Positions 1-41,869 of a DNA stretch of 54,789 nucleotides are shown here, piece after piece. Numbering within the stretch: the first letter of the stretch is position 1; each line of letters starts with the position of its first letter. The translations under genes and the position numbers were made by a program. Under the pieces are notes generated by a model, which did no database searches, was not told the origin of the DNA, and worked only from the letters and a program-made list of their open reading frames with translations. The stretch spans positions 1-54,789 of the forward strand of contig JAKEGK010000125.1 in the NCBI GenBank assembly GCA_022627515.1, given 5' to 3'. The DNA comes from Gammaproteobacteria bacterium. Its GTDB lineage: Bacteria > Pseudomonadota > Gammaproteobacteria > SZUA-152.

Positions 1-1024
1 GGTCGTAGGACCGCGCAAAAGACGCTATTCCTTCCTCAAGCAGTTGCTCACATATCTGCTTCAGCCGCCTTCGCGCCAGATTTATCTCCATGCTGTCTTC
101 CAGTACTGACCGCACATTGCCGCGCGCCATAAATGTTTCGAGTGTTTCAGGAGGCATGGTGTTTATAGTCTCATCCCCAACCAAAGACTCGACATAGAGC
201 AATTCCGGATACTCGGGATTTTTGACACTGGTGCTGGCCCACAGCATACGTTGTTTGTTAGCACCCCGCGCAAACTGTTTCCGGTACTCCTCTGCCTGAA
301 TGATTTCATTGAATCGCTGATAAGCATGCTCGGCATTGGCCACCGCGATTTTTCCTTTCAGTTCGAGCGCCGCCGGGGAACCGATTTTGTCCAGCAAGGG
401 ATCCACCTTGCTGTCAATGCGGCTAACAAAAAATGAGGCCACCGAAGCAACATGTTTCGGATCAGGATTTTTTTGCAGGCCGCGCAGATAAGCGCCGGCG
501 ATAGCTTCGTATTGGGAGACCGAAAACAGCAACGTAACGTTCACGTTGATGTTCTCGGCTATCAATGTTTCAATGGCTGGAACAGCATTACTGGTAGCAG
601 GCACCTTGATCATGAGATTCGGACGTTTAACATGACGCCATAGCGTGCGCGCCGCTTCTATGGTTGCGTTGGTATCATTGGCAAGATGCGGTGAAACTTC
701 CAGGCTGACATAACCGTCCACACCCTCTGAACTGACATAAACGTCGTGCAACAGGTCAGCCGCCGCCTGTATATCCTGCAATGTGAGCCAATGGTAAAGT
801 ACATTGGCGTCTATGGCGTGGTCAGCCTGTATCAGATCACGAATGGCCGCGTCATAATCCCGGCTTTTCGTGATTGCCTTTTCGAAAATCGTGGGATTAC
901 TGGTAACTCCGCGCACGCCAAGCCCCACCATCTCCTTCAATCCGCCATTGTTAACCAGATTCCGGTCAATATAATCCAGCCACACCGATTGCCCGTGATC
1001 AAGCAGCGTCATAAGTTTTGACAC
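1..1024 (-). CDS. tal: Transaldolase (3' end runs off the window)
   Basis: Not in the ORF track because there is no stop codon in the window. Manual translation from GTG at 1024 (GGAGG upstream) gives GQSVWLDYI, GVTSNPTIFEKAI, GYVSLEVSPHLA, NLMIKVPAT, INVNVTLLFS, SVASFFVSRIDSKVD and QRMLWASTSVKNP, all transaldolase motifs. Confidence 0.95.
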   Translation of the reverse strand, partial: MSKLMTLLDHGQSVWLDYIDRNLVNNGGLKEMVGLGVRGVTSNPTIFEKAITKSRDYDAAIRDLIQADHAIDANVLYHWLTLQDIQAAADLLHDVYVSSEGVDGYVSLEVSPHLANDTNATIEAARTLWRHVKRPNLMIKVPATSNAVPAIETLIAENINVNVTLLFSVSQYEAIAGAYLRGLQKNPDPKHVASVASFFVSRIDSKVDPLLDKIGSPAALELKGKIAVANAEHAYQRFNEIIQAEEYRKQFARGANKQRMLWASTSVKNPEYPELLYVESLVGDETINTMPPETLETFMARGNVRSVLEDSMEINLARRRLKQICEQLLEEGIASFARSYD

Positions 1025-1955: not shown

Positions 1956-4900
1956 CTAAAACTTGCCAATCACGTTGATAAACAGGCCGTGACTGTCGTA
2001 ATCCAGATCCGTCAGGTCATCGGAGAAATCCGTGAAGTTATAGCCGGCGCCCATCTTGATATGCCGGTCGAAATGGCTATAGATGGCTAGCAGAATACCG
2101 CTGCGGGAATCACCCGCGGCCGGTATGTCAAGCAGGCGGCCTTCCAGTAAGGCATCCCATTGATGGGCAAAATGCCAGTCGCCTCTTAAGATATATAGCG
2201 ACGCATCACTCGCAAAGAATTGCTGATTTTCACGGTCAAGGCTCAACTGACCGAAGCGATGCGCGTATTTGCCACCCAGGGTCCACTCGCGTGTCACGTC
2301 ATACATGACGTCAGCGGAAACCACATGGCTCTTCTGGATATATTGCGCGGCGCTATTGTTCAATGTTATCTGATCCGTACCTGGCATATTATAGAAGTAC
2401 GTGTATTTGAACAGCGCATTCAACGCATCATTACTGACAGGCCGGAACGCGTAACCCACCACCGCTTCGGTAAAATTGCCGTTGTAAAAATCACCGAGCG
2501 AGCTTTCACTTTGCGAGTAATTCAGTTTTCCGATAATCCGCCAGTCCGGGTTCAACTGGTACTTGATGCTGTTTTTCATCAACCATGTCGTGCGTTCGGC
2601 GAAGGTGGTATCCGGCTGTTCCGTTTCGTCAACGCGGTATTCCAAAGCGCCCGCATACGTGAATGATTCAAACTTATAGCCAATCTTGAAACCTGCCGCG
2701 GTGCGGTTGGTTTCAGCGCCGGTGTTGTTATCCTTGAGTGTGCCGATATCAATGTGGCCGCCTAAGTTCAGGTTGTCAGTCACGGCAAGGTCAACACCCA
2801 TTGCGTGGGTCAGCCCGGTTGGCACATCGCCATGCGTATAGCGTTCTTCCAGGTAGATGCTGGCGCTATCGGAGTACTGGCTCTTGAATCCGGTCGCCAT
2901 ATTGCCCTGGCGCGCTTTAACACCGTTGTCCGTGCGTTCATTCTCCAGCGCATAGCTGACATAAAGATCCGTGGCGTCCGTCATCCTGTAGCCGCTGCCA
3001 AGTTTGACGGCTGTACCCAGATCACCAGAGGATAATTCACCATCCAGTTTGAAACGGTCTGTGGCGCGGTATTCGCCGCCTACACCCACGCGGCCGTTAT
3101 CGTCACGATTACCATCAACTTTGGCAGTATCCTGAATATAACCATAGGCCAGCCAATGCTCGCGGGAATCGAACGTTGTTCTGAACGCTACATCAGTACG
3201 CTCACCCTCTTGCTGGGTCAGAGGCGCGGTAGGTGAATTGTCGGTGCGTTTGTCATTGCGCACGCCTAATCCGAAAGTCCAGTGCTCACCCATGAGATAA
3301 TCAACATTCATTTCGAGGGCTTCCGACTCAAGCGCGTTTTCCTGTTCCATCGCATCGGCCTTGAGTTTGACATTCACGGATTCATACACCGGCATTTGCA
3401 GCATTACACCAGTCTGCGTGGTATCGGTCAGTGCGATCAGTCCGGGCGCGGAATATCCTGCATCCAATTGCTGGTTAAAGAAAGTTAGCGTGCCGTTTAT
3501 GCCATCAAAGATATCTTCCATACGGATGCTGATATCCACCCGTTGGCCTTTGGCCTCAACATCAGTGCCGGGCGCTAACGCAAATTCGTTAAACTGGTAA
3601 CCGCCGTCCGTGGAGGACAGTGTCGAAGACACCAGGCCCAGACTGTTGGACTGTTCCAGTTTAAGCCAGGTGCCGGCGGTTTTTCTAAACGTTAAATCAT
3701 AGGCGCTAAGACTGGTTTCATTGCCGGCTGAGTCCTGATCCTCCATCGTGAATCCCAGTTTCGCAAGATCGTTAATCCAGTAATGCATCCGGCCGCCGGT
3801 GGTTACATCGTTCAGCTCTTCAAATCCGGGTGTGTATTCGTAACGCACCAGCAGGTAAGCATGATTGCCGCCATAGTCTCTGCTGTCGACCAGGGTGTCG
3901 GATGCCGCCGATGCGGAAAGCGGTTCACTGAGCATAATCCGCCCCTGAATATAATCGATATCATAGTCCAGGCCATGGGTCAGGTTTTTCACGCCAACCA
4001 CCAGTCCGGATACCGCGTCACGGATTTCTATGCGCACCCGCTCGGAACCGGTGAGGATATCCTGGTGCCGCAGATAGTACAGTGACCCGCCGGTGCCGCG
4101 GAATTCGTCCCGCCCCGCCAGGGTACCCGGTTCAGCGGCAAACAGGTTGGCGGCAAAGCGCTTCTCGCCAAAGGCTGTGGCAGCAGTGGTTTCATAGTTG
4201 ATGTTTGCGCCATAGAGGCCACGGTCCACGTGGGCAAGATTGTTATCCAGGTAGGCAATATCGAAGTTGCCCCACAAGCCATAGTTCCAGTCTTTTTGCC
4301 ATTTCAAGTAGAACTTGCCGGATGTCGGCGCGTCCTCTTCCACGGTGCTGTCGTCACCGAAGGTCGGATAGTAATAATCCGGATCAATGCGGCGGAACAA
4401 GGCCTCGGGGGACTTGTTCATGAAGTTGGAGAACAACTCATCCACCGGTCCTTCACGGGTATCGGCACTGGCGGTCAGCACCGAGTCATTGGCAAACCTG
4501 CCTTTAATATAGAAAGCCAGGCGGCCGTCGATGCCAAACTCACCGCGGTAATCATCGTCATTGCCGGTAACCAGTTGCGCCGGTCCACTGGTTTCGTCCT
4601 GGCTGGCGGTCAAGTCCGCAATACCGACGTAGAACCAGTCAGTTTTATCCAAAGATAAGTCGCGTTGATAAACGCTGCCGTTACCCGCATCATCGGTGAT
4701 GGCCACTTCCACGGTATGCAGGCCGGAAGGCAGAATAAACTCGCCGGTGAACTCGCCATTGCCGGCTACAGGCAGTTCACGTCCCGCAAACCACAGCTTA
4801 AAGCCTTGCGGAACATCCTGGCCGTAAATCCGGACCGCACCACCATGCAAGGGAATGTTATTCAGCGCCAGTCGGTTCTCGCCGTAACCCACCAGTAATT

Positions 4901-7900
4901 CCTTCTGATAATCGCGGGCGCTGTAATCGGTCTCCAGCCAGTCGAGTACCCATAGCTTCTGTTCCGCGGTTTCGTCAAAATTACCCTGTTTGTCATAGAC
5001 GCGCAGCACGTAGTTCAATTCCGTGCGTGGTGTTGTGTAACTGTCCGGACCGGCTTCCCACTCCGCCTCCCCATATTGGTTTATCGGGATAATGAAAGCT
5101 GGCGTATCACGTGTGGATTTTCCGGCGCCAAACAGCCGCACTTCCGCCCTGGTGATAAATGCCGGATAGTTGCTGTATAGCTTGAAATGCGTGCGGTTTT
5201 CCACGAACGCAGTCTCCGCGTTGTCAACCTGGTTGATCACATTGGGCCACGCCGTAACGTTAAGGCGTGGCTTCACCTGCAGGTTGTCAAACTTGAAGCG
5301 CACCTGCGCCCTGTCCAGCTCAACGTCGGTGCAGCGCTGCACATCGGGAATGTTCTTGTTTGGATCGTCAACCGGCTGACCGTCCACGGAGATGCGCATC
5401 AGGTTCAAGGCATACGGATTTTTGGTTTCCACATCACGGGTAAAGCGTTTGATTGAAACGCCTTCCATTTCATCCAGCACCGCCAGTTCATCGTAGACGA
5501 CCAGCACTTCGACCTTGGACTGATCCAGCTCGACAAAGCCGGTGTTCACTACGTCATGCGACTGCACGTAACCATGTCCTTCAAACTGAACCTGTTTATC
5601 CGGCAAGCTCATTTGCTGCTGGATGAGTTCCATGGCGCGGCGCGCGCGCGCCGTGGACAGGCCGATGTCATCGCCATAAACCATGGCGGTGCGGCGGTCG
5701 AGGCGTTTATTACTGGTGTAGCCGATAAAGCGCAGCCGCACATTACCCTCGTTTTTGATATCGTCCATGGCGCGTTGCAGGCGTTTGACATAACCTTCCG
5801 GAACCACTGGCTGACCGTTTTCAAAATAAAGGGGCGGTATGTCGCCTTCCGGCGGATTGTAAATACGTTCCACGGTTTCGGCGCCAGCCGCTTCCGGACA
5901 GATCTGCGGTTCATCCGGCAAATCTTCCAGCGGATCATCGTGCCAGAATTCCACTTCAACACGCCGGTTCAGGGTGCGGCCTTTCTCGGAATTGTTGGAC
6001 GCCAGCGGCTGACTTGAACCTTTACCGGTGCTGTCAATGGCGGTGTTGGGCAGTCCCAGAGCTTCCTGCACCGCAATAGCAACGCGTCGCGCGTTGGCTT
6101 TTGAAAGTCCCTCGTGATCGCCGTAGATGCGTTCGTCGCGGCCGGTTAACGGTATGTTATCGGTGTAGCCAATAAAGCGCATTTGCACGTTATCCTTGCC
6201 GGACAAGTTAGCCAGCGCCTGTTTCAGTTGATTGATAAACTGCGCGGGAATTTCCGACACGCCTTCATCGTAATGAAACGGCGGCACCAGATTTTTCAGT
6301 TTGGCGCGGCGGGAATGGCCTTCCTTGTAACGCAGCTTACACATGGTTTCCACGCGGCAAACCATGATGCGCTTGATGTCCTTATCGAGTTCAACCTGCC
6401 GTTCCACCTGCTCTTCACTGACTTCGTCGTACCATACTTCAACTTCCACACGGCGGTTGCGCGCCCTGCCCGCTTCAGTATCATTACTGTCGGCCGGTTT
6501 TGTTTCGCCCAATCCTTCATAGGAGATGGCTTCCGGCGGCAATAACAGCGCGCGCTGGAAGAATTCCGCCGTGGTGCCGGCCCGCTCCCTGGAAAGGCCC
6601 ATGTTGTCTTCGTATTGCTGTTTCAATTCACCAAACAGCGGCACGTTATCGGTATGACCCACGAAGTGCAGGCGCACGTTGACGCGGCCGCGCATGGTAT
6701 TGAGCACTTCCCGCAATTTGTTGACGTAGTCTTCCGAAATATCCGCAGTGCCGGATTTGAACAAAATGGGCGGAACCAGGTTGTTCAGTTTTTTCGTGTT
6801 ATATTTCTTTTCCGTAACCTGTTGTGTTTCAATCGTTGGGACATCATCGTTCTTGTAAACGCTGGTATCCATCCAGGGCGTATAAGTGTAACCGTAAGGC
6901 AGTTGCATTTCGGTGTCTTCGCCAAAGGTGGAACGGTTCAGCACACCGGACGCGTAGTCCAGCGTATCGATACTTGAGCCATTATCCACCGGTCCGCCAT
7001 GACGCCAGAACACCTCGGTTTCAATTACAAGTTCATTAACGCTGACATCTTTCCATTTATCCAGGATCGCTTCCTTCAGCGCTTTTAGCCGGTCATCCAC
7101 CAGACCCGCCGGTTCCACATCCGCCAGGTAAGTAATACGTAATACGGAAGCTTGCTTGCGTAATTCTTCAACGAGTAAACCTAGCCGCGGCGTCCATTGC
7201 GGACGTACTTGTGCCGAATCGGGATGGAATACACCATCGGCTACGCTCAATGTCACCACGTGATGCACGGTAGCGCCGAAGTTAAAGCGCGCCATTTTGC
7301 CCCGGGTGAGGCGTTGCACGTGCGGATTTTCCGTCGTGACCCGGTAACCGCTGGGCAGGGATCTTTCATCCAGTTTGAGAATAAAGTTACCGCCCCGGTC
7401 TTCGTCAGGCACGGCGGCGCAGGTTACATGGAAGCGGCCATGTTCGTCCGTGGTAACCAGCAATCCGCGCGCCGTCGCAAGCCGCGCACCGGCAATGCCG
7501 GTTTCACCCTCATCCTGATAACCATTGAGGTTCCGGTCATCAAACACTTTACCGATAATATCAGAACAATCAAACGTGGGATCAGGCACGACCCGTACCG
7601 TGGCGCTGGCTTCGCCGGACACGTTAGCCGCGGTCAAGTTACTGTATACATGGGCGCGATTGACATATTCACCTTCCTGAACACCGGCGCCGACAACCAG
7701 TAACAATTCCAATGTATACGTGGTGTCGACTTCGATAGATGCCACATCCCAAATTAACCGCAGATTATTCAGCACCGGTTCCGTCGAAGTTCCATTAAGA
7801 CGCGCTGAACCTTCCACGTATTTAAATCCGGGCGGCAGGCTATCAATGATCGACACATTCGTCAGCGGCACCGGCAAGGTGTTGTTTACCGAAATCGTAT

Positions 7901-10900
7901 AGGGAACCAGATCGCCCCTGCTGACATTAACCATCGGTGTTGTTTTGGTGATTGTCACCACCTGCCCCAGATCGGGATCCAACGGAATATGATTATTGAA
8001 CAGCTGGCTTTCACCGGGGATTTGTCCGTTATCCAGTGTCAAATGCAAGTGATAGTTGGTGCCGGCAGTGCGTGGTGCGATAGATAATGGCGGCAGATCC
8101 GCAAACGTCTGTACCTCGCAATGGTTGGTGGTTGCCGGCACCGCGTCATCAATACTGCCCAGGCAACCGGGCGCCGAAAATGGCGTGGTCGCAGCATTGG
8201 TTAACGGCGGTATCGCCACTGACTCGCCACCCACGTAGCCGGACGGCGGCGGCGTCACGCGGATCAGATAATCGCTGCTATTGTTACATTCGGGTTCGTT
8301 AAAGTTGATATCAAACTTGTAAAACCCGTCCGCCAATGTAACCTGGTTTTGCTGAGCCTGATCATTGAAACAATTACCTGGTAACAGCGTATTGGTAGAT
8401 GCGCGCAACATGGCAACCGTAGCGCCTGCCACCGGTATGCGCACAATGGAATTGTAGATGACACCATCAGGATCAATCGGCAGGTTCAGATCCAGCAGAT
8501 TGGTATTGGGATAGAGAATAATGTCATAGATACGTTGCAACGCATTGGTAAAAGCCGAAGAAGCCTCTCCCAGCTTGGCTGCCGTGGCAGTGGCGCCGGG
8601 TGCGACAAAACGCAATTCGTACCGGTCGGGACTATAATAGTTCGCCGCCAAACCATTAATCTGGTATTGACCGTTGACATCTGTCGACACGCTGTGCAAC
8701 AGGTTGCCTCTGAAATAAACTTCGACGCGCCAGTTTTCCAGCGTGCGCTCGCCGCTGTTGTCAAACACATCATCGAAATTGGCGTCATGCCACACCCGGC
8801 CGTTGAGATTGGCAACTCCCGACATAGCGCCGATATCGATGGAGACACTGGCGGATGCCGTCTGGGTCATGGCATTCCAGTACACCTGCGCGGTATTGAT
8901 AACGGCCTGGCCGATGGGGAGATTGGCATCCAGTAATACCCTGAAACGCAGCTCAACAACCTGATTCGGCTGCAACAAGCCATAAGTATTGCCGTAATCC
9001 GCGGTAATCGTGGGCGCGAGGTAAGTAACACCCGTGGTGAATCCATTCATTGTCGCCGAACCGGCCACATAAGTCTTATGACCGGGAACCGGCAGATCCA
9101 GGTTATCGTAAATTACCACATTCGTTGCCGGCACCGTGCTCACGTTGGTGACACGTACTACGTATTCGAGCTGACCGCCTGCAACGGCGGGGCCGCCGCC
9201 AACAACCATCACCGCTTTGGTGATTGCCAGTTGCTGCGCGTTGCCGACCGCAATTAATGTGGGCTGACGACCGTTTGATGGAATACCATCGGCGTCGGTA
9301 AGTTCCCGCGGCAACTCATTGCTGTCGATGTATCCCTGGTTACTGATAATGGTGCCGGACGGTGTTGCGGCATTAACTACCACATCAAAGGTGATAACCG
9401 CCGTTCCGCCGGGCGATAGATATCCCACTACCGGCAGCGGCGGTGTCAGATCCGACGAACTGACCGGTATACCGGCAATCAACGGCGATATGCCGTTATC
9501 CGGTTGCGCGACCGGCAGACCGTTCAGGTAAACGGAATCGGGTACATACGCGGTGTCATTCGGGACGGCGTCGGTGAATATCACACCGGTGGCATCCACA
9601 CCGCCATAGTTGGTTATCGTAACGGTATAACGCAGCACATCATTAGGATCGACAATACCTGGTGTGCTGTTATCCTCCTGCAAGGCCACTGTTTTCACTG
9701 CGATGATCAACGGCAGGCTACCCACCACATCGAGCGTTGGATCATCGGGCGTTGGAGTCGCCGGATCATCGGAAGGTTGTTGCGCAATGGGGCCGCTGTT
9801 ACCCGCACCGTCGGCATTGACATAACCCTGGTTTGAGATAATCGTGCCGCTAATCACATCGGCATTGATCATCACATCAAAGGTAATGGTTGCGACATTA
9901 TCCGTGGCGGCGCCGGCATCGGCTCGCATGAAACCGGCCGTGGTGTTTTCCGGCGCGTTGATCAGCATGCCGCTTTCAATGGCTGAGACACCCGCGGACG
10001 GATCGGCAACCGTGACACCATTCAGCGTGGTGGTGCCGGCAATGTAAGTGGTATTGTTGGGAATGGTATCCTGCAGCAGGGTGCTGACCGCGTTTTCATT
10101 ACCGATGTTCTTCACGGTAATGGTGTAACGCAGCGTTTCGCCGGGCAGCAGTTCCGTGGGCGAACCGGTGATGTCGTCCGATATTTTTTGCACCTGGAAC
10201 CGTGGGGCGGACGCGATCAGGGTTTGTGTCGGATCTTCATCGCCAATGACACTGGGATTGTCCGCGCCATTAACATTGGGGTCATCGCTGGGCAGCGGGG
10301 TCAGGTTGTAAATCTGCAATTGCGCCTGGTTCAGCGCCAGCGTACCGCTATCAATTACAGAAACCAGAGTCACGTCAAATTCAATGGTGACACTGTCATT
10401 GCCGCCACCGGCAACCGTCATCGACAGATTGCGCACTTCCAATAGTCCGGTACCATTCGCACCACCGTTCGGATTGGTGTTGGAAATATCGGCGCCCGCC
10501 GGTACACTGATGATAGTCAAGCTTCCCGGTACAAACAGCGCCGGACTGTTTAAGCGGTCCACTTCGTCAAGGATGGAAAAGACAGGCACGTCCACCGGAC
10601 TGACATTGGTGGCCACGATGCGGTAACGCAGAGTATCGCCCGGCGAAGCATCGGCGCCCGGATCCTGGCCGGTAGTGGTGTTTATAACGTACTTCTGGAA
10701 CTGGATGATCGGTGACTCGGTAACCGTGGTATAGGCATCTTCATGGTCCAGCGTACCAGCCGTGCCGTCAGTGATCGCTCTTGAATAGGTACGGATTTCT
10801 CCCGTGGCGCCGGCTCCCGCGGTATCACCGCTGAACCACTCTGTTACCCCTGCAATATTGGTTAACGAAGTATTATTGGCGGAATCCGTATCCAGGGTTA

Positions 10901-13900
10901 CATCATAGTTAATAATCAGGCGATGATCGGCCGGAATAGCCGCCGCAGGTGTCAGCATCGTCAGGATCAACGTACAGATAGGTGTGCCTGTGGCAAAGTT
11001 AACGGTAAAGTCTGTGTTTTCCACCAGCGGCGCACCGGCGGCAGTGACACCATCCGCCAGGTATAACTGCGCGGAAATATTGTAGGGCGCCACATCGCAC
11101 ATGCCACCGGGAACAGGATTGGGTATATAGTCGGTAATCGTTGCATCGTAGGCATCACCCGTTCCGGCGTTATGCACATTAAGGGTAAATGAGGCGGGCA
11201 AGCCCACACGCATGGTGGCAGGTCCGGATTTTTCCAGTGTTAAATTGTCAGGACCTGCTATGGTCATGTTGGCCGTAGTCGCTGGCGAACCGTTTTGTTG
11301 CGTGGCCGGAGTATTGGCTAACTGGTTATAGGTGTAATTCGCGGTATTGTTAAACAACAGGCCGCTGACATTCGTTGCGGTGTTATCTACCTGCACGGTA
11401 ATGTCGATCACCGCCTGCTCACCGGCCGGAATGTCGATACCGTTTGACGTGTCTTCAATCACCAGACTGGTGACAGTACCGGTATTCACCGGCGTCCACG
11501 GCTGTGACCCGCTGATCTTGGTAACACTGACAAAACTCAGATCAGCCGCCGGTGCACCAAGGTCATCCAGAATACGCACATCATGTAACGTCACTGGTAT
11601 AGGCGTTGCGGGAACGGTAATGCGGTAGGTAAAAGTCTCACCAACAGAAACTATCGTGTCCGCCGGATTAGCCTTCGCCAGTGCGCCAACGACCGGTGAA
11701 GTCAGTGAGGTGGTTGCCGTGTTAGTGGGTCCATAAATTTCCCTTACGCCGTTGATGCCACCCAGAACCGGCGCTGCTTCATCATCAAACGAATAATAAT
11801 TGATACCCGTGACGGCATTAGTCAGAGTGAGCCCGGCGCCCAAATCGGCATCGGCTTGCGCCTGGTAAACGATGGTAAGTGTTTCGCCCGCCCCAATGGT
11901 ATAGGCATCAGCAACACCGCTATCAAAACTCCAAATGGCAATCCCCGTTACCGGATCGTATGTTGGCGCTACATTAGCAACAGGACCACCCGCCAATGTG
12001 GTGCTCACCATGGTTATGGTTGCGGCGCCGTTACGCATGCCCGCGGGAATGACATCCTGCAATACCAGATCATAGGCCGGGGCCGTACCGCTGTTGACCA
12101 TATTCACTGTGTAAGTCACCAGTTCATTGGCATTGATAATTGTATCTCCACCAGCGGGCGCCGCGGATTTATTTACTGTCAGCAGCGGCTGCAGTACGGT
12201 AATAACTGTATCGATATCGGAATTTGTCGTCGTGCCGGACACTGTGTCATAGCTTGCGGTTACGGTATTGTTCAACGGCGTGGAATTAATCTGCGGGAAT
12301 ACGTTATCCATAACCCGCGCCCGGTACACGATGACAAAGTCGTTTGCCGTATCGTCAACGGGTTGATTGGTCACATTACCGAAGCTCCAGGTTACCGTGG
12401 TGGGGCCGGTGGCGGGATTACCCGCCTCCACAGCGGCGACGAAATCAGCATGGGTAAACGGCGCAACAGCACTATACGGCGCGGTGGTGTCTCCGTTGAT
12501 GCTGACGATGCCCGCGAAGTCCAGACCTTGTGGCAGAGTATCAACCAGCTGAAGATTCGCCAGTGTTCCTTCAGGTACCGTCAATGTCAATGCGTACTCG
12601 ACAATGTCACCGATCCGCGCGTTATCGTCACCAGCGCCATAGGTATCGCTGCTGCGAACCTTGGTAATTGGGGCATTGATGTTTGGGGAGTTTAGTGTCT
12701 CTGTTGCCGGCGCCGTGATGTAGTCGTTGAGCCCGCCGATGCCATCCAAGCCGTTACGCTCATACAGGCTCAAGCCGTCGATACCGGTCCATTCTGCAAC
12801 CACGCTATTGTTGAGCACCTGTCCCGCGAGCACATTGTTAAGTAAACGCACATCGTATTCGAATGCAATGGGGGTGCCTTCGGCAATGTCGATGTCGGCA
12901 TTGCCATCCGCCAGGCTCCAGACCAGTGTTTGCGGTGTGGTGATACCATCACCTGTGATAACTGGCGCGCCGATGGTATTGCCGGCGCCAGTCACGGTGG
13001 GATTGCCTTCGTAAACCAGCCCGAGATCCAGGTTGTCGGTTATGGTAACGTCAAACACGTCCGAAGAATCGGCGCCACCAACAGCCGTCAATGCCACGGA
13101 GTAACGTACGACTTCACCGGCGCTGGGCGTGAGATTGTTTGCAGTCTTGGTAATATTGCTGATATGCGGCTCGACGATATTGATCGTCACTATGTCAGTA
13201 CTGACCAATACTTGCTGTGTTGCCCCGATCGGCGTGAAGGTATACGTATACGACACTGTGTTGTCAATATCAACACCTTGCTGAGCGGCCAGTGTGTTTC
13301 GTACACGGGCGTGCAACTCGATCACTGCCTGATCCCCGGCCGGCATTTCCGCGATTGCGATGTTCATCTGGGTTGCGGTGCTGGTGTCTATCACACCAAT
13401 ACCGCCCGTGACATTTACGCTGACAAATTCGAGGTTCGCATCGAGCGTATCAGTAATCTGCAGGTTGTACAGCGTAGTGGCGCTTACTGCACCAGGCACA
13501 GTGATTTGATATATCACTTCCTCGCCAATGGTTGCTTCCGGACTGCCAGGTGCGGGCGAGATCAATACTTTGGTGGGCGGCGCACTGGTATATAAAGTGG
13601 TGGTTGCAATATTACCGGGACCATATATTTCGCGTATACCACTCACGGCTCCCAGCACCGGCACGGCTTCGTCATCGAATGAAAAATAACTGCTTACCAG
13701 CGCCGCATTGATCAGCGCCAAACCCTGCGCGATGGTGCTATCGGCCTGTACCTGGTAAACAATCGTGAGAGTTTCACCAGCGTCAATGGTATAAGCATCG
13801 GCAACACCGGTATCAAAATTCCAGGTAGCAATCCCGGTTCCGGGATTGTATACGGGTACAACATCTGTTACACCCGCGCCCGCCAGGGTGGTGCTCACCA

Positions 13901-16900
13901 CTGTGATCGTGGCCGCGCCGACACGCATACCATCAGGGATGATATCCTGCAATGCTACATCGTAGGCAGGCGCTGTGCCGTTGTTGACGATATCCACGGT
14001 ATAGGTAACTATCTCATCGGCATCGATAAAGATATCGCCGCCAGCGGGCGATGCGGATTTGTTCACCGTCAGATTCGGCTGGAGAATAGTGATAACAGTA
14101 TCGGTGTCCGATTGATTGACGGTTCCCGTGGCTGTGTCATAACTCATTGCCACGGTATTGTTGAGCGCAATCGAGTTGGTTTGCGCGAACACGTTATCCA
14201 TCACGCGGGCGCGATAAATGATGACAAAGTCATTGCTCAAGTCGTCAATGGGCAGATTGGTGATGTCGCCGAGGGTCCACGTCACTGTGGTCGAACCGAG
14301 CGCCGGATCGCCCGCCTCTACTATATTTGCTGCTGGGATATCCGCGTAGTCAAATGGCGCAACGGCCGTAAAAGGATCTGGCCCGGTATTGCCGTTAATG
14401 CTGACGATGCTTTCGAAGTTCAGGCCTTGCGGCAGGGTATCGACCAGCTGGAGGTTGCCCAGCGCGCCTTCTGGCACCGATAACGTTAATGTGTATTCAA
14501 CGATGTCGCCGATACGCACGTTGTCATCACCCGCACCAAAGGTATCGCCGCTGCGCACTTTGGTAATAGTGGCGTTGATGTCCGGAATGTTTAACGTCTC
14601 CATGGCCGGCAGCGTAGTGTAATCATTCAGTCCGCCGATACCGTCCGCGCCGTCACGTTCCTCGCCATTCGAACTATCGGTGCTGGTCCATTGCGTCACA
14701 ACACTGTTGTTCAGCGCCTGGTTTGCCAGCACGCTGTCGAGCACGCGCACATCATACTCAATGGTGACAGACGTTCCCTCAACAATATCAATATCAGCTT
14801 CGAGTACGCCCCAGACCAGAGTCTGCGCCGTGGCAATGCCATCACCGGTAATATCCGGCGCGCCGATGGTGTTGTCAGCGCTGACACCGCCACCGACGGT
14901 AACGGTGGGATTGCCTTCGTAGATCAGCCCAAGATCCAGGGTATCGGTGAGCGTCACATCAAACACATCTGAAAAGTTGGCGCCGCCACTGGCCGTCAAT
15001 GTCACCGAATAGCGCACAATCTCGCCGGCTGTTGGCGTGGTGTTATTCGCGCTCTTGGTAATTGTTGTAATTTGCGGTTCGACCACGGTCATGTTGCCGG
15101 TGGTGACGCCAACACCGGCGGTTTGCGTGGCGTTATTGCCGTTGGTTCGATTGTAGGTAAACGACGCCGTGTTATTAAATAACAGGCCAGCCTGGTTCGT
15201 GATGGTATTCTGTAATTGTACAGTTATCTCTATTACCGCCTGTCCATTGGCTGGAATGTCGATGCCGGCGCCGGTATCCTCAATGACGAGGTTGGTGCTT
15301 GTGCCGGAATTGGTGAGACTCCATGTGCCGCCGGATACGACGCTTGCGCTCACAAAGCTCAAGTCCGCATTGGACGCGCTCAAATTATCCAGGATGCGCA
15401 CGTCATACAAGGGAACATCCACTGCAGCAGCAGGCACGGTGATGGTGTAAGTGAATTGCGCACCGATAGTGGCAGTCGCCTGGCCACTGGTCTTCGACAA
15501 AGGCCCGGGTGTTTGTATGACGATGTCGGTGGAATCCGCCGGATCGCCGGGCGCCGCAATGCCGTTGACGTAGGGGTCGTCACTGTCTGCCGTGAGAGGC
15601 GGAGGGCCGTTGGCGTTAAAGGTCGCCTGGTTGGACACAACGGTCCCGTTAGCAAGCCCCGGCAACAGGTCGATCTCGAATTCAACCACCAGTTCCTGGG
15701 GCGGGGCAAGATCCAAAGGCGGAGGATCGCCGATGATCTGCAACAAACCTGTCACGTTATTAAACGTGTATGTGGCGCCCGCCGGCGGCGGCGCCACCAT
15801 GTTAAAGGTCGTGAGGTCAAATTTGGCTGGATCCAGCGTGTCACTGAAGGTGACATCATCGATGATGTAGGTAAAATTGAACAGCCGCAGCCGGTAACGC
15901 AAGGTGTCGCCCGGCGCGGCCGTGGTTGCCGGGTTCTCGCCGGTTATCAGGTTGCGGACGGTTTTCTGAAAGATATAACCTGTCAGCGCTGCTGTGATTG
16001 TATGATTGTCCTCGTGATCGGCAGTACCAGGGGTGCCGTCGCTGAGCGTGCCGGTAAATGTGGCGCGAGGATAAGCACCATCACCGCTGTACCACTGGGT
16101 TGCGCCGGCGACGTTGGTATGCGTTGTGCCATCGGTAACATCACCGTCGAGCTGGTTGTCATAGGTAATAATCAAACGCTCATCGGGTCCAATGACCGCG
16201 TTTGATGTCAACATGGCGAGGCTGAGCTGACAGGCAGGATCACCGGTGTAACCAATGGAATAATCAACACCCGGTGACAGTATTCCGGAAACCGGGGTCA
16301 CTCCATCCGATTCAAAGATCTGCACGCTGACGCTGGCTATTCCGGCCGGTGTTGCAAGGTAGTCGCACATGCCGGCGGGCAACTGATCCAGTATGGTAGT
16401 CTGCCAGGCGTTGCTGCTGCCGGTGTTTTGAACGTCGATGGTAAAGGTTGAATTTATGCCCAGATTCAAGGCGGTGTCGGGACTTGACTTTGTGACCACC
16501 AGATTTGGCCCGCCGATAGTCATCGGATCAGTCACGCCATTCTCACCGGGGAGAGGGTCAAAGAAATTCGGTTCCTCTATGCCGTCGCCATCGAGGTCAA
16601 TATTAATAAGCCTGCCGAATGACCAGCGCGCAGTATTGAAAAACTGCGTGCCCACGACATTTGAATTGTCAGCAACAACGGTGATAGCGATTGCGATCTG
16701 GTCACCCGCTGGAATGATTACACCGGGATTACTACCGGGATCGATCTCGAATGTGAGTAATCCACCAACATTTGAAAAAGTATGTGTTACCGGCGTGCCG
16801 CTGCCCACCCAGGTAACCGTGGGTGTTCCCACTAGAGTGAGGTCCGCACCTGTCGCATTGAGATCATCCGTAATAGTAATGCTGTGTAAATCATTCTCCG

Positions 16901-17534
16901 AACCAAAATTATTGAGGAAAGTGCCCGTTGCCGGGTCATACAACACCGGAACCGTCAGCGTGTAGGTAAAGGGCTCGCCAATACCCACGGTTGTGACGCC
17001 CGGCGGGTTCTGTTTATTGATAGCCTCGACCGGTATAAAAAGATCCTGGCAGTTATTGTTGGAGCCGTAATCCGATCCATTAACGAACCAGATCCGGTGG
17101 TCGATATTGGAGCAGGCCATGTTACCCGTAAAAACCACATTGTCGAATGTGATCAAATAGACGGAAGGATCATTGGTTTGAAAGCTGAGGGTAACAGTCA
17201 GCGGATTGGACGCCGGAAAGTTTATAAATGTACAGTCGGTATCGATGGTAATCTGGGTGCCAAGCGCGGCGAGGTGAACAGGATTGCTGCCGTCTATTGT
17301 GCCAAAGAACGGGTCCGCGGAGCAAAACTCGCCGGCCTGCGCTGACGAGGCCGCGCCCAGCAGGAGCATGACGGCCAGACGCCTAAGTATAGCGCTCCAG
17401 TGGCATCCTGCCCTCGCCGCGGCCCGCGGGTTCAGGGAAAGCAGTAAAAGCAGCAGCCCTGCCTTTAGCGGCAAAAACCAGGTCCTTTCTGTTGCAGGCT
17501 CCTGCATTTTAAATCCTTTTTTCGCCACGAGCAT
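1956..17534 (-). CDS. Giant surface/outer-membrane protein: DUF11/isopeptide repeats, SdrD-B-like domains, OmpA-like domains and a C-terminal beta-barrel
   Basis: Uninterrupted 5192-aa ORF; likely start is ATG 17507 with AAAGGA upstream. It has a signal peptide ending AQA and 18 modules of the form K...(Y/F)xI/V...D(x)L/IP...N. SdrD-B-like segments: NGRVWHDANFD and IIGKVFDDRNLNGYQDEGE. OmpA motifs: GHTDN...LSRERA...NRRVEV and GYTDN...NRRVEV. The C-terminus is rich in amphipathic beta strands and ends FINVIGKF (terminal Phe). Confidence 0.93.
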   Translation of the reverse strand: MLVAKKGFKMQEPATERTWFLPLKAGLLLLLLSLNPRAAARAGCHWSAILRRLAVMLLLGAASSAQAGEFCSADPFFGTIDGSNPVHLAALGTQITIDTDCTFINFPASNPLTVTLSFQTNDPSVYLITFDNVVFTGNMACSNIDHRIWFVNGSDYGSNNNCQDLFIPVEAINKQNPPGVTTVGIGEPFTYTLTVPVLYDPATGTFLNNFGSENDLHSITITDDLNATGADLTLVGTPTVTWVGSGTPVTHTFSNVGGLLTFEIDPGSNPGVIIPAGDQIAIAITVVADNSNVVGTQFFNTARWSFGRLINIDLDGDGIEEPNFFDPLPGENGVTDPMTIGGPNLVVTKSSPDTALNLGINSTFTIDVQNTGSSNAWQTTILDQLPAGMCDYLATPAGIASVSVQIFESDGVTPVSGILSPGVDYSIGYTGDPACQLSLAMLTSNAVIGPDERLIITYDNQLDGDVTDGTTHTNVAGATQWYSGDGAYPRATFTGTLSDGTPGTADHEDNHTITAALTGYIFQKTVRNLITGENPATTAAPGDTLRYRLRLFNFTYIIDDVTFSDTLDPAKFDLTTFNMVAPPPAGATYTFNNVTGLLQIIGDPPPLDLAPPQELVVEFEIDLLPGLANGTVVSNQATFNANGPPPLTADSDDPYVNGIAAPGDPADSTDIVIQTPGPLSKTSGQATATIGAQFTYTITVPAAAVDVPLYDVRILDNLSASNADLSFVSASVVSGGTWSLTNSGTSTNLVIEDTGAGIDIPANGQAVIEITVQLQNTITNQAGLLFNNTASFTYNRTNGNNATQTAGVGVTTGNMTVVEPQITTITKSANNTTPTAGEIVRYSVTLTASGGANFSDVFDVTLTDTLDLGLIYEGNPTVTVGGGVSADNTIGAPDITGDGIATAQTLVWGVLEADIDIVEGTSVTIEYDVRVLDSVLANQALNNSVVTQWTSTDSSNGEERDGADGIGGLNDYTTLPAMETLNIPDINATITKVRSGDTFGAGDDNVRIGDIVEYTLTLSVPEGALGNLQLVDTLPQGLNFESIVSINGNTGPDPFTAVAPFDYADIPAANIVEAGDPALGSTTVTWTLGDITNLPIDDLSNDFVIIYRARVMDNVFAQTNSIALNNTVAMSYDTATGTVNQSDTDTVITILQPNLTVNKSASPAGGDIFIDADEIVTYTVDIVNNGTAPAYDVALQDIIPDGMRVGAATITVVSTTLAGAGVTDVVPVYNPGTGIATWNFDTGVADAYTIDAGETLTIVYQVQADSTIAQGLALINAALVSSYFSFDDEAVPVLGAVSGIREIYGPGNIATTTLYTSAPPTKVLISPAPGSPEATIGEEVIYQITVPGAVSATTLYNLQITDTLDANLEFVSVNVTGGIGVIDTSTATQMNIAIAEMPAGDQAVIELHARVRNTLAAQQGVDIDNTVSYTYTFTPIGATQQVLVSTDIVTINIVEPHISNITKTANNLTPSAGEVVRYSVALTAVGGADSSDVFDVTITDNLDLGLVYEGNPTVTGAGNTIGAPVITGDGITTPQTLVWSLADGNADIDIAEGTPIAFEYDVRLLNNVLAGQVLNNSVVAEWTGIDGLSLYERNGLDGIGGLNDYITAPATETLNSPNINAPITKVRSSDTYGAGDDNARIGDIVEYALTLTVPEGTLANLQLVDTLPQGLDFAGIVSINGDTTAPYSAVAPFTHADFVAAVEAGNPATGPTTVTWSFGNVTNQPVDDTANDFVIVYRARVMDNVFPQINSTPLNNTVTASYDTVSGTTTNSDIDTVITVLQPLLTVNKSAAPAGGDTIINANELVTYTVNMVNSGTAPAYDLVLQDVIPAGMRNGAATITMVSTTLAGGPVANVAPTYDPVTGIAIWSFDSGVADAYTIGAGETLTIVYQAQADADLGAGLTLTNAVTGINYYSFDDEAAPVLGGINGVREIYGPTNTATTSLTSPVVGALAKANPADTIVSVGETFTYRITVPATPIPVTLHDVRILDDLGAPAADLSFVSVTKISGSQPWTPVNTGTVTSLVIEDTSNGIDIPAGEQAVIDITVQVDNTATNVSGLLFNNTANYTYNQLANTPATQQNGSPATTANMTIAGPDNLTLEKSGPATMRVGLPASFTLNVHNAGTGDAYDATITDYIPNPVPGGMCDVAPYNISAQLYLADGVTAAGAPLVENTDFTVNFATGTPICTLILTMLTPAAAIPADHRLIINYDVTLDTDSANNTSLTNIAGVTEWFSGDTAGAGATGEIRTYSRAITDGTAGTLDHEDAYTTVTESPIIQFQKYVINTTTGQDPGADASPGDTLRYRIVATNVSPVDVPVFSILDEVDRLNSPALFVPGSLTIISVPAGADISNTNPNGGANGTGLLEVRNLSMTVAGGGNDSVTIEFDVTLVSVIDSGTLALNQAQLQIYNLTPLPSDDPNVNGADNPSVIGDEDPTQTLIASAPRFQVQKISDDITGSPTELLPGETLRYTITVKNIGNENAVSTLLQDTIPNNTTYIAGTTTLNGVTVADPSAGVSAIESGMLINAPENTTAGFMRADAGAATDNVATITFDVMINADVISGTIISNQGYVNADGAGNSGPIAQQPSDDPATPTPDDPTLDVVGSLPLIIAVKTVALQEDNSTPGIVDPNDVLRYTVTITNYGGVDATGVIFTDAVPNDTAYVPDSVYLNGLPVAQPDNGISPLIAGIPVSSSDLTPPLPVVGYLSPGGTAVITFDVVVNAATPSGTIISNQGYIDSNELPRELTDADGIPSNGRQPTLIAVGNAQQLAITKAVMVVGGGPAVAGGQLEYVVRVTNVSTVPATNVVIYDNLDLPVPGHKTYVAGSATMNGFTTGVTYLAPTITADYGNTYGLLQPNQVVELRFRVLLDANLPIGQAVINTAQVYWNAMTQTASASVSIDIGAMSGVANLNGRVWHDANFDDVFDNSGERTLENWRVEVYFRGNLLHSVSTDVNGQYQINGLAANYYSPDRYELRFVAPGATATAAKLGEASSAFTNALQRIYDIILYPNTNLLDLNLPIDPDGVIYNSIVRIPVAGATVAMLRASTNTLLPGNCFNDQAQQNQVTLADGFYKFDINFNEPECNNSSDYLIRVTPPPSGYVGGESVAIPPLTNAATTPFSAPGCLGSIDDAVPATTNHCEVQTFADLPPLSIAPRTAGTNYHLHLTLDNGQIPGESQLFNNHIPLDPDLGQVVTITKTTPMVNVSRGDLVPYTISVNNTLPVPLTNVSIIDSLPPGFKYVEGSARLNGTSTEPVLNNLRLIWDVASIEVDTTYTLELLLVVGAGVQEGEYVNRAHVYSNLTAANVSGEASATVRVVPDPTFDCSDIIGKVFDDRNLNGYQDEGETGIAGARLATARGLLVTTDEHGRFHVTCAAVPDEDRGGNFILKLDERSLPSGYRVTTENPHVQRLTRGKMARFNFGATVHHVVTLSVADGVFHPDSAQVRPQWTPRLGLLVEELRKQASVLRITYLADVEPAGLVDDRLKALKEAILDKWKDVSVNELVIETEVFWRHGGPVDNGSSIDTLDYASGVLNRSTFGEDTEMQLPYGYTYTPWMDTSVYKNDDVPTIETQQVTEKKYNTKKLNNLVPPILFKSGTADISEDYVNKLREVLNTMRGRVNVRLHFVGHTDNVPLFGELKQQYEDNMGLSRERAGTTAEFFQRALLLPPEAISYEGLGETKPADSNDTEAGRARNRRVEVEVWYDEVSEEQVERQVELDKDIKRIMVCRVETMCKLRYKEGHSRRAKLKNLVPPFHYDEGVSEIPAQFINQLKQALANLSGKDNVQMRFIGYTDNIPLTGRDERIYGDHEGLSKANARRVAIAVQEALGLPNTAIDSTGKGSSQPLASNNSEKGRTLNRRVEVEFWHDDPLEDLPDEPQICPEAAGAETVERIYNPPEGDIPPLYFENGQPVVPEGYVKRLQRAMDDIKNEGNVRLRFIGYTSNKRLDRRTAMVYGDDIGLSTARARRAMELIQQQMSLPDKQVQFEGHGYVQSHDVVNTGFVELDQSKVEVLVVYDELAVLDEMEGVSIKRFTRDVETKNPYALNLMRISVDGQPVDDPNKNIPDVQRCTDVELDRAQVRFKFDNLQVKPRLNVTAWPNVINQVDNAETAFVENRTHFKLYSNYPAFITRAEVRLFGAGKSTRDTPAFIIPINQYGEAEWEAGPDSYTTPRTELNYVLRVYDKQGNFDETAEQKLWVLDWLETDYSARDYQKELLVGYGENRLALNNIPLHGGAVRIYGQDVPQGFKLWFAGRELPVAGNGEFTGEFILPSGLHTVEVAITDDAGNGSVYQRDLSLDKTDWFYVGIADLTASQDETSGPAQLVTGNDDDYRGEFGIDGRLAFYIKGRFANDSVLTASADTREGPVDELFSNFMNKSPEALFRRIDPDYYYPTFGDDSTVEEDAPTSGKFYLKWQKDWNYGLWGNFDIAYLDNNLAHVDRGLYGANINYETTAATAFGEKRFAANLFAAEPGTLAGRDEFRGTGGSLYYLRHQDILTGSERVRIEIRDAVSGLVVGVKNLTHGLDYDIDYIQGRIMLSEPLSASAASDTLVDSRDYGGNHAYLLVRYEYTPGFEELNDVTTGGRMHYWINDLAKLGFTMEDQDSAGNETSLSAYDLTFRKTAGTWLKLEQSNSLGLVSSTLSSTDGGYQFNEFALAPGTDVEAKGQRVDISIRMEDIFDGINGTLTFFNQQLDAGYSAPGLIALTDTTQTGVMLQMPVYESVNVKLKADAMEQENALESEALEMNVDYLMGEHWTFGLGVRNDKRTDNSPTAPLTQQEGERTDVAFRTTFDSREHWLAYGYIQDTAKVDGNRDDNGRVGVGGEYRATDRFKLDGELSSGDLGTAVKLGSGYRMTDATDLYVSYALENERTDNGVKARQGNMATGFKSQYSDSASIYLEERYTHGDVPTGLTHAMGVDLAVTDNLNLGGHIDIGTLKDNNTGAETNRTAAGFKIGYKFESFTYAGALEYRVDETEQPDTTFAERTTWLMKNSIKYQLNPDWRIIGKLNYSQSESSLGDFYNGNFTEAVVGYAFRPVSNDALNALFKYTYFYNMPGTDQITLNNSAAQYIQKSHVVSADVMYDVTREWTLGGKYAHRFGQLSLDRENQQFFASDASLYILRGDWHFAHQWDALLEGRLLDIPAAGDSRSGILLAIYSHFDRHIKMGAGYNFTDFSDDLTDLDYDSHGLFINVIGKF
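11676..15494 (-). repeat. Intragenic tandem duplication of a four-domain block (about 1.9 kb, two copies)
   Basis: Paired motifs recur at 1896-1923 nt spacing: ITKSANNTT/ITKTANNLT (15054/13146), ITKVRSGDTFGAGDDN/ITKVRSSDTYGAGDDN (14559/12660) and VNKSASPAGG/VNKSAAPAGG. Confidence 0.85.
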
Positions 17535-17572: not shown

Positions 17573-18946
17573 TTATGACGCCGGCAGGAAGTCGATCGGA
17601 TAAAGAATAGTTATCTGTGGAACACCTTCTTTCGCGCCGAAGTTGAATTTCTTCACGCGCTCCACGATTTCCTCCAGTAGTTTCTTGTGGTCCATATCGG
17701 TCGATTCCACTTTGACGAACGACACGCTGCCGTTAGGTTCAATGGTGATGCGCAACACCACTTTGCCCTGCAAGGTGGGATTGACACGCAGCTCGCGGTT
17801 GTAAATGCGGTACAGCGCCGCCTTGTATTTATCAAACACAATCTGGATTTCTTCGTCAGTGCGTGACGGACCCGCGCCTTCGCTAAGGGGACGGTCTTCC
17901 GCAACCGCCGTACCAATCGCGCTGTCAACCCGCGAGAAAGCCACGGCGGCAATCTGGTCACCGGTACCGGCAACATTGCGGCTGAGCGAAGAACTCCTGA
18001 TACCACCGCTGCTGCTGGTAGCCTGGGAAGTTATGATCGAACGCTGCGTGCGTTTGGCGGTGGAACCGGCGTTACTCAGATTGGCATTGGCGCCGAGCTT
18101 GTCGAGCGCCGCGTCTTCCAGCAAGTCCGCAAAATTATTCTTGAACGCGAGCACGCCCTTTTCTTTCACCTTCTCGCGGGCGTCCTGCCGTTCTTCCTTG
18201 GTGGGCTCTTTCTTTTCCGTCTTTTTCTGTTCTTCCGGCTTTGGCTGCTCTTTCTTTGGCGGTGGTTTGGGTTTTTCCTTCTTGATCAGCTTGGCCAGGC
18301 GCTCCGGCACCTCAACCGCTTTAGTGCGGTCGGGAATCGGCACTTCATACAGCGGGACCAGCCATCCGAGCAGGATACTGATAAACAGCACCAGTAACAG
18401 TATCTTGCGGAATTGCCTTTCATCCTTATCCCGCTTCGTCCACGGCATGACGGTAACGCGGTAAGGAATGGGCTTGATTTCGCGCTCAACGATATATTCA
18501 TGCTTGGCTTCTTCTTCCTGTTCTTTCAGTAAGTCAATTTCTTCTTCAAGATACGCGATCTCGATATTCCGTTTCCTGATTTCTTCAAGCGTGGCGTCAC
18601 GGCGGTCGGTTACTTTTTTGATGCGCCGTTCAAAGAAAGCGACCTGATCGCGCAAGCGGCTGAGCTGGCCTTCAACCTGGCCGTCATTGACCAGTCCTGA
18701 CCAGAATAAGGCGTTACCGCCGATTTCATTGAGTTTTTCGAGACTCTCACAAACACCGGATAGCACTTCATATTTGCGGTGTTCGTCCGAAATGCCGTCC
18801 AGTTCCGTGTCTATGGACTGTAGTTCTGTTTCAAGGCGTTTTATTTCCGTCTGATAGCCATCTATTCTGGCATAGCATTTATCAAGCCTCTGATACAGGT
18901 TATGTTCATTTTGTGCAACTACAGCGCTCATAAAATTCACATCCAA
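17573..18946 (-). CDS. AgmX/PglI C-terminal (TonB-C-like) domain protein, GltG-like energy transducer
   Basis: N-terminal coiled coil, one TM helix (ILLLVLFISILLGWLV), a Pro/Lys/Glu-rich linker, and the C-terminal domain RTDEEIQIVFDKYKAALYRIYNRELRVNPTLQGKVVLRITIEPNGSVS...YPIDF. Confidence 0.88.
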   Translation of the reverse strand: MDVNFMSAVVAQNEHNLYQRLDKCYARIDGYQTEIKRLETELQSIDTELDGISDEHRKYEVLSGVCESLEKLNEIGGNALFWSGLVNDGQVEGQLSRLRDQVAFFERRIKKVTDRRDATLEEIRKRNIEIAYLEEEIDLLKEQEEEAKHEYIVEREIKPIPYRVTVMPWTKRDKDERQFRKILLLVLFISILLGWLVPLYEVPIPDRTKAVEVPERLAKLIKKEKPKPPPKKEQPKPEEQKKTEKKEPTKEERQDAREKVKEKGVLAFKNNFADLLEDAALDKLGANANLSNAGSTAKRTQRSIITSQATSSSGGIRSSSLSRNVAGTGDQIAAVAFSRVDSAIGTAVAEDRPLSEGAGPSRTDEEIQIVFDKYKAALYRIYNRELRVNPTLQGKVVLRITIEPNGSVSFVKVESTDMDHKKLLEEIVERVKKFNFGAKEGVPQITILYPIDFLPAS

Positions 18947-41867: not shown

Positions 41868-41869
41868 CC

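Follow-up and report, generated by a model that had tools for sequence, protein, structure and literature searches.

A predicted 40-strand outer-membrane barrel, fused to or paired with giant repeat proteins, as a candidate exit and anchor for wall-tethered surface fibres

We analysed a stretch of 54,789 nucleotides (nt) from a gammaproteobacterium (assembly GCA_022627515.1, contig JAKEGK010000125.1), below called the window, in which an open frame without stops on the minus strand (1956..17534) encodes a protein of 5,192 amino acids (aa). The C-terminal 894 aa of this protein (window 1959-4640, minus strand, ending ...GKF), here called the module, are predicted from structural models and coevolution to form one outer-membrane barrel with about 40 strands, which would make it larger than every barrel solved so far. 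The module is the founding member of a very large family without a name, in which the barrel is either fused to a giant repeat protein, the cargo, or encoded next to one. The best explanation of the whole, to which we give about an even chance of being right, is that the barrel is a dedicated outer-membrane exit and anchor for a giant fibre tethered to the cell wall.

AlphaFold2 modelled the module, on a 47-sequence alignment, as an almost all-beta protein (mean pLDDT, for predicted local distance difference test, 81.4; predicted template-modelling score, pTM, 0.74), and a 1,154-aa construct that adds the conserved region upstream of the module gave a similar result (pLDDT 81.1, pTM 0.79). The same 40 long strands were counted in both models, a count that leaves out residues 171-279 and two bridges of 3-4 residues. 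Coevolution was computed by mean-field direct coupling analysis (mfDCA) on 368 homologues (effective number 269); with the full alphabet and strand columns only, 37 of the 39 consecutive strand pairs lay above the 99th percentile of the 740 non-adjacent pairs. Most neighbours scored 4.3-11, and no non-adjacent pair stood out (maximum 4.1). The hairpin coevolution is thus unbroken, and the chain is therefore one continuous 40-strand meander. Over 40 strands and 368 homologues, one strand face is hydrophobic or aromatic (mean Kyte-Doolittle value +0.75) and the other polar or charged (-1.23); in the window's own sequence Gly, Asp, Arg, Thr and Lys abound on the polar face, as would suit a lumen occupied by water or protein. 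An even number of amphipathic strands (40), a C-terminal Phe, and signal-peptide-like starts in the split and near stand-alone forms (by eye) are what is found in outer-membrane barrels generally. A first-pass annotation of this DNA, made from the sequence, had already described alternating-hydrophobic strands, a terminal Phe and a barrel of about 900 aa far larger than the 12-stranded one of an autotransporter, and had proposed a strand count as a check; all of this was borne out, the predicted count of 40 also lying far above the 22 strands of a TonB-dependent transporter.

From these data we infer a single closed barrel, and several points weigh against that reading. The aggregated coevolution between strand 1 and strand 40 is 2.1-2.3 (74th percentile), within background. 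Porins of 16 strands align to about 250 residues of the model at a root-mean-square deviation (rmsd) of 6-7 Å, across the range 1..894, and the modelled barrel may be lobed or pinched rather than round. A round barrel of 40 strands would measure about 7 nm between backbones, by our own estimate from the strand-number formula, and since the loops are short, something must fill a lumen of that size. As to closure, two single residue pairs between strands 1 and 40 do rise above the rest (14-886 with Z 5.3, 15-883 with Z 4.0), high conservation of the last strand leaves little room for covariation there, and the porin alignments suggest that the N- and C-terminal strands adjoin in the model.

The same evidence bears on the possibility that the chain holds several smaller barrels, or a 22-strand TonB-dependent transporter with extra domains. 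Chains with several barrels are in print (passages of Solan et al. 2021, PMC8346858), the closure signal lies within background, barrels of porin and VDAC size align to parts of the model, and a TonB-like gene adjoins. We nevertheless consider this reading improbable, because all consecutive strand pairs but two are supported, including those at which sub-barrels would break, and because the pTM values of 0.74 and 0.79 indicate one rigid unit. The alternative closing pairs that were tried (1-8, 8-40, 9-40, 7-28 to 7-32 and 8-26 to 8-29) were all within the mfDCA background; an apparent pairing of strand 1 with strand 8 (score 4.13) fell to 1.38 with the full alphabet. For the transporter, neither Plug nor TonB_dep_Rec matched at E ≤ 10, and the solved transporters of that class could be aligned only with an rmsd of 12-22 Å. 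A type V (autotransporter) barrel was likewise rejected, no such Pfam family matching the last 514, 894 or 1,200 aa at E ≤ 10 and 40 strands being counted. Structure searches with Foldseek and VIA returned generic barrels only (SlpA, LptD, BtuB, MtrB, porins and ushers), the module had no sequence relative in the PDB (phmmer and profile), and the clusters found in the ESM Atlas were unnamed or labelled only 'outer membrane protein'. We keep to the single barrel of about 40 strands as the predicted fold.

The limits of the module were set by its homologues, which align over all of its 894 residues. Some forms stand almost alone (P0175, P0257 and P0259 are examples) and consist of a signal-peptide-like start (by eye), 25-85 residues, and then the first strand of the module. 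No curated family covers the module in Pfam or NCBIfam, and the last ~1,190 residues of the 5,192-aa protein match no family of either collection above noise. The family is nevertheless very large: 3,292 clusters at 50% identity match the module at E ≤ 1e-3 and 919 at E ≤ 1e-30, a second search matched 4,053 of 8,000 scored candidates at E ≤ 1e-3, and the module was present in 39 of 401 genomes sampled across the phylum. Where the source annotations name members at all, they call them 'OmpA family protein', 'MotB' or 'hypothetical protein'. A search of the genome contigs for related loci gave no confirmed locus. A split form of about 1,700 aa occurs in cultured species, named by the sources as Microbulbifer litoralis, Thiohalomonas denitrificans and Geomonas propionica, and these carriers make genetics and cryo-electron microscopy feasible. 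The closest named homologues (P0002 and P0007, with 80% and 71% identity) are labelled Kaarinaea lacus, which the NCBI taxonomy places in the cyanobacteria (Nostocales); this label conflicts with those of the other relatives in the same listing, which are given as Gammaproteobacteria (one of them close, with 75% identity) or Myxococcota (about 49% identity).

The window's protein can be divided into several parts. The gene as a whole (1956..17534, minus strand, like all parts named here) matches DUF11, isopeptide-forming D2, DUF7619, SdrD_B and three OmpA stretches in Pfam and NCBIfam. Its cargo, or passenger (7218..17534), comprises about 3,440 aa of Ig-like repeats, recognised by Pfam and NCBIfam repeat families, and opens with a hydrophobic stretch ending ...AQA that resembles a signal peptide (by eye, no predictor). 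A conserved cargo C-terminal domain follows (about aa 3440-3516, 6987..7217, ending ...FWRHGG), defined by a 7-sequence alignment: its ~75 aa are conserved in seven systems, with a Y, an E and an R invariant. Next come three OmpA-like peptidoglycan-binding stretches (about aa 3591-4000, 5535..6764; PF00691 at E 1.8e-24, with TIGR03350 and other OmpA-type models) and, directly before strand 1, a conserved beta-rich region of about 230 aa (4641..5333). This last region forms beta strands at residues 40-257 of the 1,154-aa model (pTM 0.79), has 25-35% identity to the same region in eight short-form loci (tblastn), and is shared by almost every member of the family that reaches about 1,150 aa. The region may serve as a periplasmic dock or as a plug; its coevolution with the barrel is scattered, with 87 inter-domain pairs among the top 400 against 138 expected by share. 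The chain ends with the module itself (1959..4640), whose 40 predicted transmembrane beta-strands were read from AlphaFold2, coevolution and strand faces and which closes with a C-terminal ...GKF signal.

The pairing of barrel and cargo was examined in 11 loci chosen from the 38 other genomes with matches, for good full-length matches and mostly long contigs. In 10 of the 11, a giant open reading frame (ORF) with DUF11, DUF7507, SdrD_B or DUF7933 domains (Pfam) lies directly upstream of the barrel gene on the same strand, and many of these gene pairs overlap by 1-4 nt. The exception, which counts against a constant pairing, is genome G291, where an unrelated helicase-type gene stands upstream of the barrel gene. 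Genome G008 showed the same cargo-barrel arrangement by tblastn, and all nine barrel ORFs examined start with a signal-peptide-like N-terminus (by eye). In these relatives the cargo protein stops at the conserved C-terminal domain and the barrel protein opens with a signal-peptide-like stretch of its own; in the window the cargo C-terminal domain runs directly into what corresponds to the mature N-terminus of the barrel protein of genome G215. The window's gene is such a cargo and barrel pair in fused form. Fused homologues, of 2,889-6,030 aa, are common, and among the matches listed all 120 carry both PF00691 (OmpA) and PF01345 (DUF11). A second fused paralogue exists in the same genome, with 27% identity in the module and Big_1 and Invasin_D3 adhesin domains.

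This paralogue lies on contig C306 of the genome (G000; L003:2-6985) and runs off the contig start, with an open frame over 2,327 aa; its domains are DUF11, fn3, Big_1/Invasin_D3, SdrD_B and OmpA, and the ORF after it has 437 aa and a Glucodextran_B-like domain. In G008 (L014:7312-7325) the cargo and barrel genes are in frame with a single TAA between them, which may reflect a recent split, read-through or a sequencing error, and the barrel keeps a signal-peptide-like start; the 1-4-nt overlaps of the other genomes place the two genes in different frames.

The position of the OmpA domain gives a clue to topology. In two loci (L021 of G346 and L022 of G173) this domain stands at the C-terminus of the cargo and not at the N-terminus of the barrel protein, and this variation between cargo and barrel proteins means that the break point between the genes moved during evolution. 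OmpA-like domains act in the periplasm, and as the break may lie on either side of the OmpA domain, the cargo most likely has its C-terminus in the periplasm as well. The repeat fibre would then leave through the barrel. A complex prediction of the barrel with the cargo C-terminal domain scored 0.00, was made without controls, and counts neither way. A full-text literature search returned no paper that describes the pairing of the module with cargo, OmpA domains and a Glt-type operon.

Domain order and standard knowledge of the families concerned suggest a mechanism for the first three of four steps. Sec would export the chain, and the BAM machinery would insert the barrel by way of its C-terminal Phe signal. 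The OmpA-like domains and the conserved cargo C-terminal domain would stay in the periplasm and bind the cell wall, and the fibre of about 3,400 repeat residues would exit through the wide lumen, so that the barrel would act as exit pore and collar of a wall-anchored surface fibre. In the fourth step, which is drawn from the gene neighbourhood, a proton motor of ExbB-ExbD-ExbD type may in this lineage energise the export or exposure of the fibre or pull on it, acting through a GltG-like TonB protein and three TPR proteins; such a set matches the core complex from which the Agl-Glt gliding machine of Myxococcus is thought to derive. It speaks against too firm a view of this scheme that we infer, from the arrangement just described, both the passage of the cargo through the barrel and its exposure at the surface; the pore role, the lumen and the coupling to the motor are likewise putative.

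The module and its OmpA domains might also be mainly a tether between the outer membrane and the wall, similar to SlpA, with the cargo not passing through the lumen and either held in the periplasm or exposed in some other way. In VIA the barrel of SlpA (8ae1_A) is indeed the best match, with Z 13.6 over 460 aligned residues, though at an rmsd of 12.3 Å; OmpA-like wall-binding domains often accompany the module, most family members have no motor nearby, and by the default topology everything N-terminal to strand 1 is periplasmic. However, forms without an OmpA domain are common (26 of 30 scanned proteins of 1,095-1,392 aa), the constant partner carries adhesin-type Ig repeats (DUF11, SdrD_B, Big_1, Invasin_D3) and no wall component, and a repeat fibre of 3,400 residues would be hard to house in the periplasm. 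We regard such a tether as rather unlikely, though a serious competitor, and prefer the barrel as both exit and anchor of the fibre.

The first-pass annotation had seen in this barrel a motif reminiscent of SprA, the translocon of the type IX secretion system, and the element it pointed to proved to be of interest for other reasons. The motif string that it quoted at 3745-4085 is present in the translation within 6 nt of those positions: 'YYLRHQD' starts from window 4079 (residue 188 of the module), and 'KLGFTM' runs to window 3744 (residue 299). The strand at residues 162-170 coevolves with that at 280-288 (scores 7.6, 6.4 and 7.5 in three mfDCA runs), so that residues 171-279 (3804..4130, minus strand) are an insertion between neighbouring barrel strands, a small beta domain delimited by the coevolution of its flanking strands and by its conservation. 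Counted from a periplasmic N-terminus, it would occupy the extracellular loop 7-8. It coevolves with another long loop (pairs 84-194 and 73-229), namely loop 3-4 at residues 61-109 (4314..4460, minus strand), which has two short helices (DSSP) and a further coevolving pair, 44-103. The insertion is the best conserved part of the module: in the 47-sequence alignment 87 module columns are conserved at 90% or more, and 24 of these fall in the insertion, which makes up 12% of the length, far beyond what chance would give; 24 of its 109 columns reach this level as against 50 of 615 in strands 8-40. Model residues 174-271 match a neck domain of phage DT57C in VIA (8hqo_R, Z 8.1, rmsd 1.6 Å over 67 residues). 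The motif is therefore a real and functionally important element, and it bears no SprA signature.

That the barrel as a whole might be a diverged SprA/Sov-type type IX translocon, as the same annotation proposed, was examined by sequence and by structure. SprA/Sov handles large surface proteins together with an inner-membrane motor driven by protons, and like the module it is a very large single-chain barrel; in the window, too, a giant single-chain barrel stands beside a large surface protein and a proton-driven motor, and SprA is the solved chain with the most aligned residues in the wide VIA search (6h3i_A, 612 residues). This match is generic, however, with an rmsd of 13.3 Å at Z 8.1, and in Foldseek, which the annotation had suggested as a check, SprA (6h3j_A) came only at rank 31, with TM scores of 0.23/0.15 and 5% identity. 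Neither SprA_N (PF14349) nor any other SprA model of Pfam and NCBIfam matched the module at E ≤ 10, and neither the family profile nor the 128-aa motif segment matched anything, SprA chains included, at E ≤ 10 among 177,635 PDB sequences, a library that contains the SprA entries 6H3I and 6H3J. A genome-wide search with PF14349 was blank, but it was blank in the control genomes too and says little. The count is 40 strands where SprA has 36, the motor belongs to the ExbB/ExbD/TonB (Glt) type and not to GldLM, and the solved SprA chain has more than 2,100 residues as against 894 aa with short loops in the module. A SprA origin is thus very improbable. The earlier picture of a SprA-like translocon fused to its own cargo and energised by a motor holds in part: it was right in shape, since the barrel is predicted to be very wide, the cargo is fused to it and an inner-membrane motor adjoins, and wrong in kinship, and the link to the motor is not general.

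The motor genes form an operon directly upstream of the giant gene, on the same minus strand. Its first gene (27465..27986) encodes a secreted protein of 173 aa without a family match (orf173); it is followed by three TPR proteins of 728, 1,146 and 255 aa (21046..27502; TPR families), which in size and order correspond to GltC, GltD and GltE, by an ExbB/TolQ/MotA-like proton channel (20008..20658; PF01618, E 1.4e-24), and by two ExbD/TolR-like genes (19010-19507 and 19504-19992; PF02472, E 3e-13 and 1e-14). The last gene before the cargo (17573..18946) encodes a TonB/GltG-like force transducer of 457 aa, which passes NF033768 (65.8 bits, cut-off 40) and matches TonB_C; it consists of a cytoplasmic coiled coil, one membrane helix, a linker rich in Lys, Pro and Glu, and an AgmX/PglI-type C-terminal domain. 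One TolQ-like protein, two TolR-like proteins, three TPR proteins and one transducer of the TonB-C type (Pfam) make up the composition of the Agl-Glt core complex. The gliding models themselves matched weakly: gliding_GltG matched the transducer at E 6e-13 in its C-terminal domain only, gliding_GltE reached E 4e-9 and gliding_GltC E 1.5e-5, these three and the GltJ equivalog model were all matched only locally and far below their cut-offs, and no match to a GltD model was seen in the NCBIfam scan of the operon.

The order orf173, TPR, TPR, TPR, ExbB, ExbD, ExbD, TonB-like, cargo, barrel is conserved in G002 (of the same genus), G008, G105 and G215, that is, over four genera and three families. 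The operon is contiguous in G008 and, over the part covered (all but orf173), in G002, and is split over contig ends in G215 and G105; G008, G105 and G215 each have orf173 in the corresponding position. Several counts nevertheless weigh against a general role of the motor. Of 37 genomes with the module, only 6 have its 1146-aa Glt-type TPR protein, 8 of the 11 GltD-bearing genomes in the phylum sample had no module match at E ≤ 1e-20, and neither cargo nor barrel lies downstream of four other core complexes, of which one is in this genome. The link between motor and barrel is lineage-specific, not general.

At least four more copies of the 1146-aa Glt-type TPR protein occur elsewhere in the genome (G000), with 33-41% identity (C89:7767-10271, C61:6097-8601, C280:23208-24575 and C66:41423-42814); the copy on C89 belongs to a complete TPR-ExbB-ExbD-ExbD-TonB-like operon without a giant gene or a barrel downstream. 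The window's transducer (17573-18946) has a cytoplasmic coiled-coil extension of about 170 aa, and the transducers of paralogous and other core complexes align with it only from near residue 160. Further along the window there are two multihaem cytochromes with MtrC/MtrF-like domains (33205-34968 and 37339-38766), one with an additional magnetochrome and the other with a PKD domain, and a cytochrome c and a haem-copper oxidase subunit I are encoded at 41271-43375.

Among known systems, the type V secretion systems (autotransporters, intimin/invasin and two-partner systems) resemble the present one in that passenger and outer-membrane barrel share one chain or are encoded by neighbouring genes. 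A wall-binding domain in the periplasm is found in inverse autotransporters too, and the paralogue of the window's protein, with its Big_1 and Invasin_D3 domains, adds to the likeness to intimin and invasin. Type V barrels have 12-16 strands, however, as against 40 predicted here; no autotransporter, POTRA or ShlB-type family matched at E ≤ 10, and the gene order here is cargo first, then barrel. SlpA of Deinococcus radiodurans (8AE1, 8AGD) is a large barrel of 30 strands joined to a wall-binding SLH domain and is the top structural match by Z. It differs in that the match has an rmsd of 12.3 Å and 11% identity, and in that SlpA is trimeric, carries a coiled coil and SLH instead of OmpA domains, and has no giant repeat partner.

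In number of strands the nearest counterparts are themselves predictions. Solan et al. (passages of PNAS 2021, PMC8346858) used sequences and contact maps to predict a superfamily of large barrels that includes family 003, with 38 strands, and family 002, a predicted single-chain barrel of 40 strands, more than in any solved barrel, with no function assigned. The present family and family 002 are compared here by description, the main text giving no accessions, and may be identical or distinct; cargo pairing, an OmpA link and a Glt-type operon are absent from those passages. Three predicted barrels of 38 strands in Deinococcus are likewise mentioned in a passage of von Kuegelgen et al. (PNAS 2022, PMC9388160). 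The 36-strand SprA is called the largest known barrel in a passage of a 2026 preprint (10.64898/2026.03.07.710327), and if our model holds, a family of thousands of members forms barrels that are larger still. Their constant pairing with giant adhesin-like proteins points to a route of secretion or anchoring outside the recognised types.

The comparison with Agl-Glt (AglR/Q/S, GltC/D/E/G) concerns the inner part of the system. The same domains in the same numbers are found in one operon, and the C-terminal domain of the transducer passes the AgmX/PglI model; this likeness is one of family models, gene order and protein sizes, M. xanthus sequences not having been compared directly. The outer-membrane partners differ, being a 40-strand barrel and a DUF11 fibre here in place of GltA/B/H/K and CglB. 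Luciano et al. 2011 (passages of PMC3169522) described the seven genes of the core complex as lying together in one operon, its function not known, in Gammaproteobacteria, a betaproteobacterium, Geobacter and Fibrobacter, and the same operon, its function still unknown, is mentioned for Gammaproteobacteria and Geobacter in a passage of the preprint by Islam et al. (2020, 10.1101/2020.07.22.216333). The window thus offers a concrete candidate for the object on which the core complex of Glt type works in Gammaproteobacteria, a function that the gliding literature of 2011 and 2020 left open. We tentatively propose, as a possibility less likely than not, that we are dealing with an undescribed export-and-anchoring device, in which a barrel of about 40 strands, the largest yet, would release a folded, isopeptide-stabilised giant fibre with its base kept at the cell wall by OmpA domains, and which in this lineage would be the missing outer-membrane partner and substrate of the ancestral Agl-Glt core complex. 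If this were true, the core complex would be a proton-driven machine that deploys or pulls a surface fibre, and a forerunner of the focal-adhesion gliding of myxobacteria.

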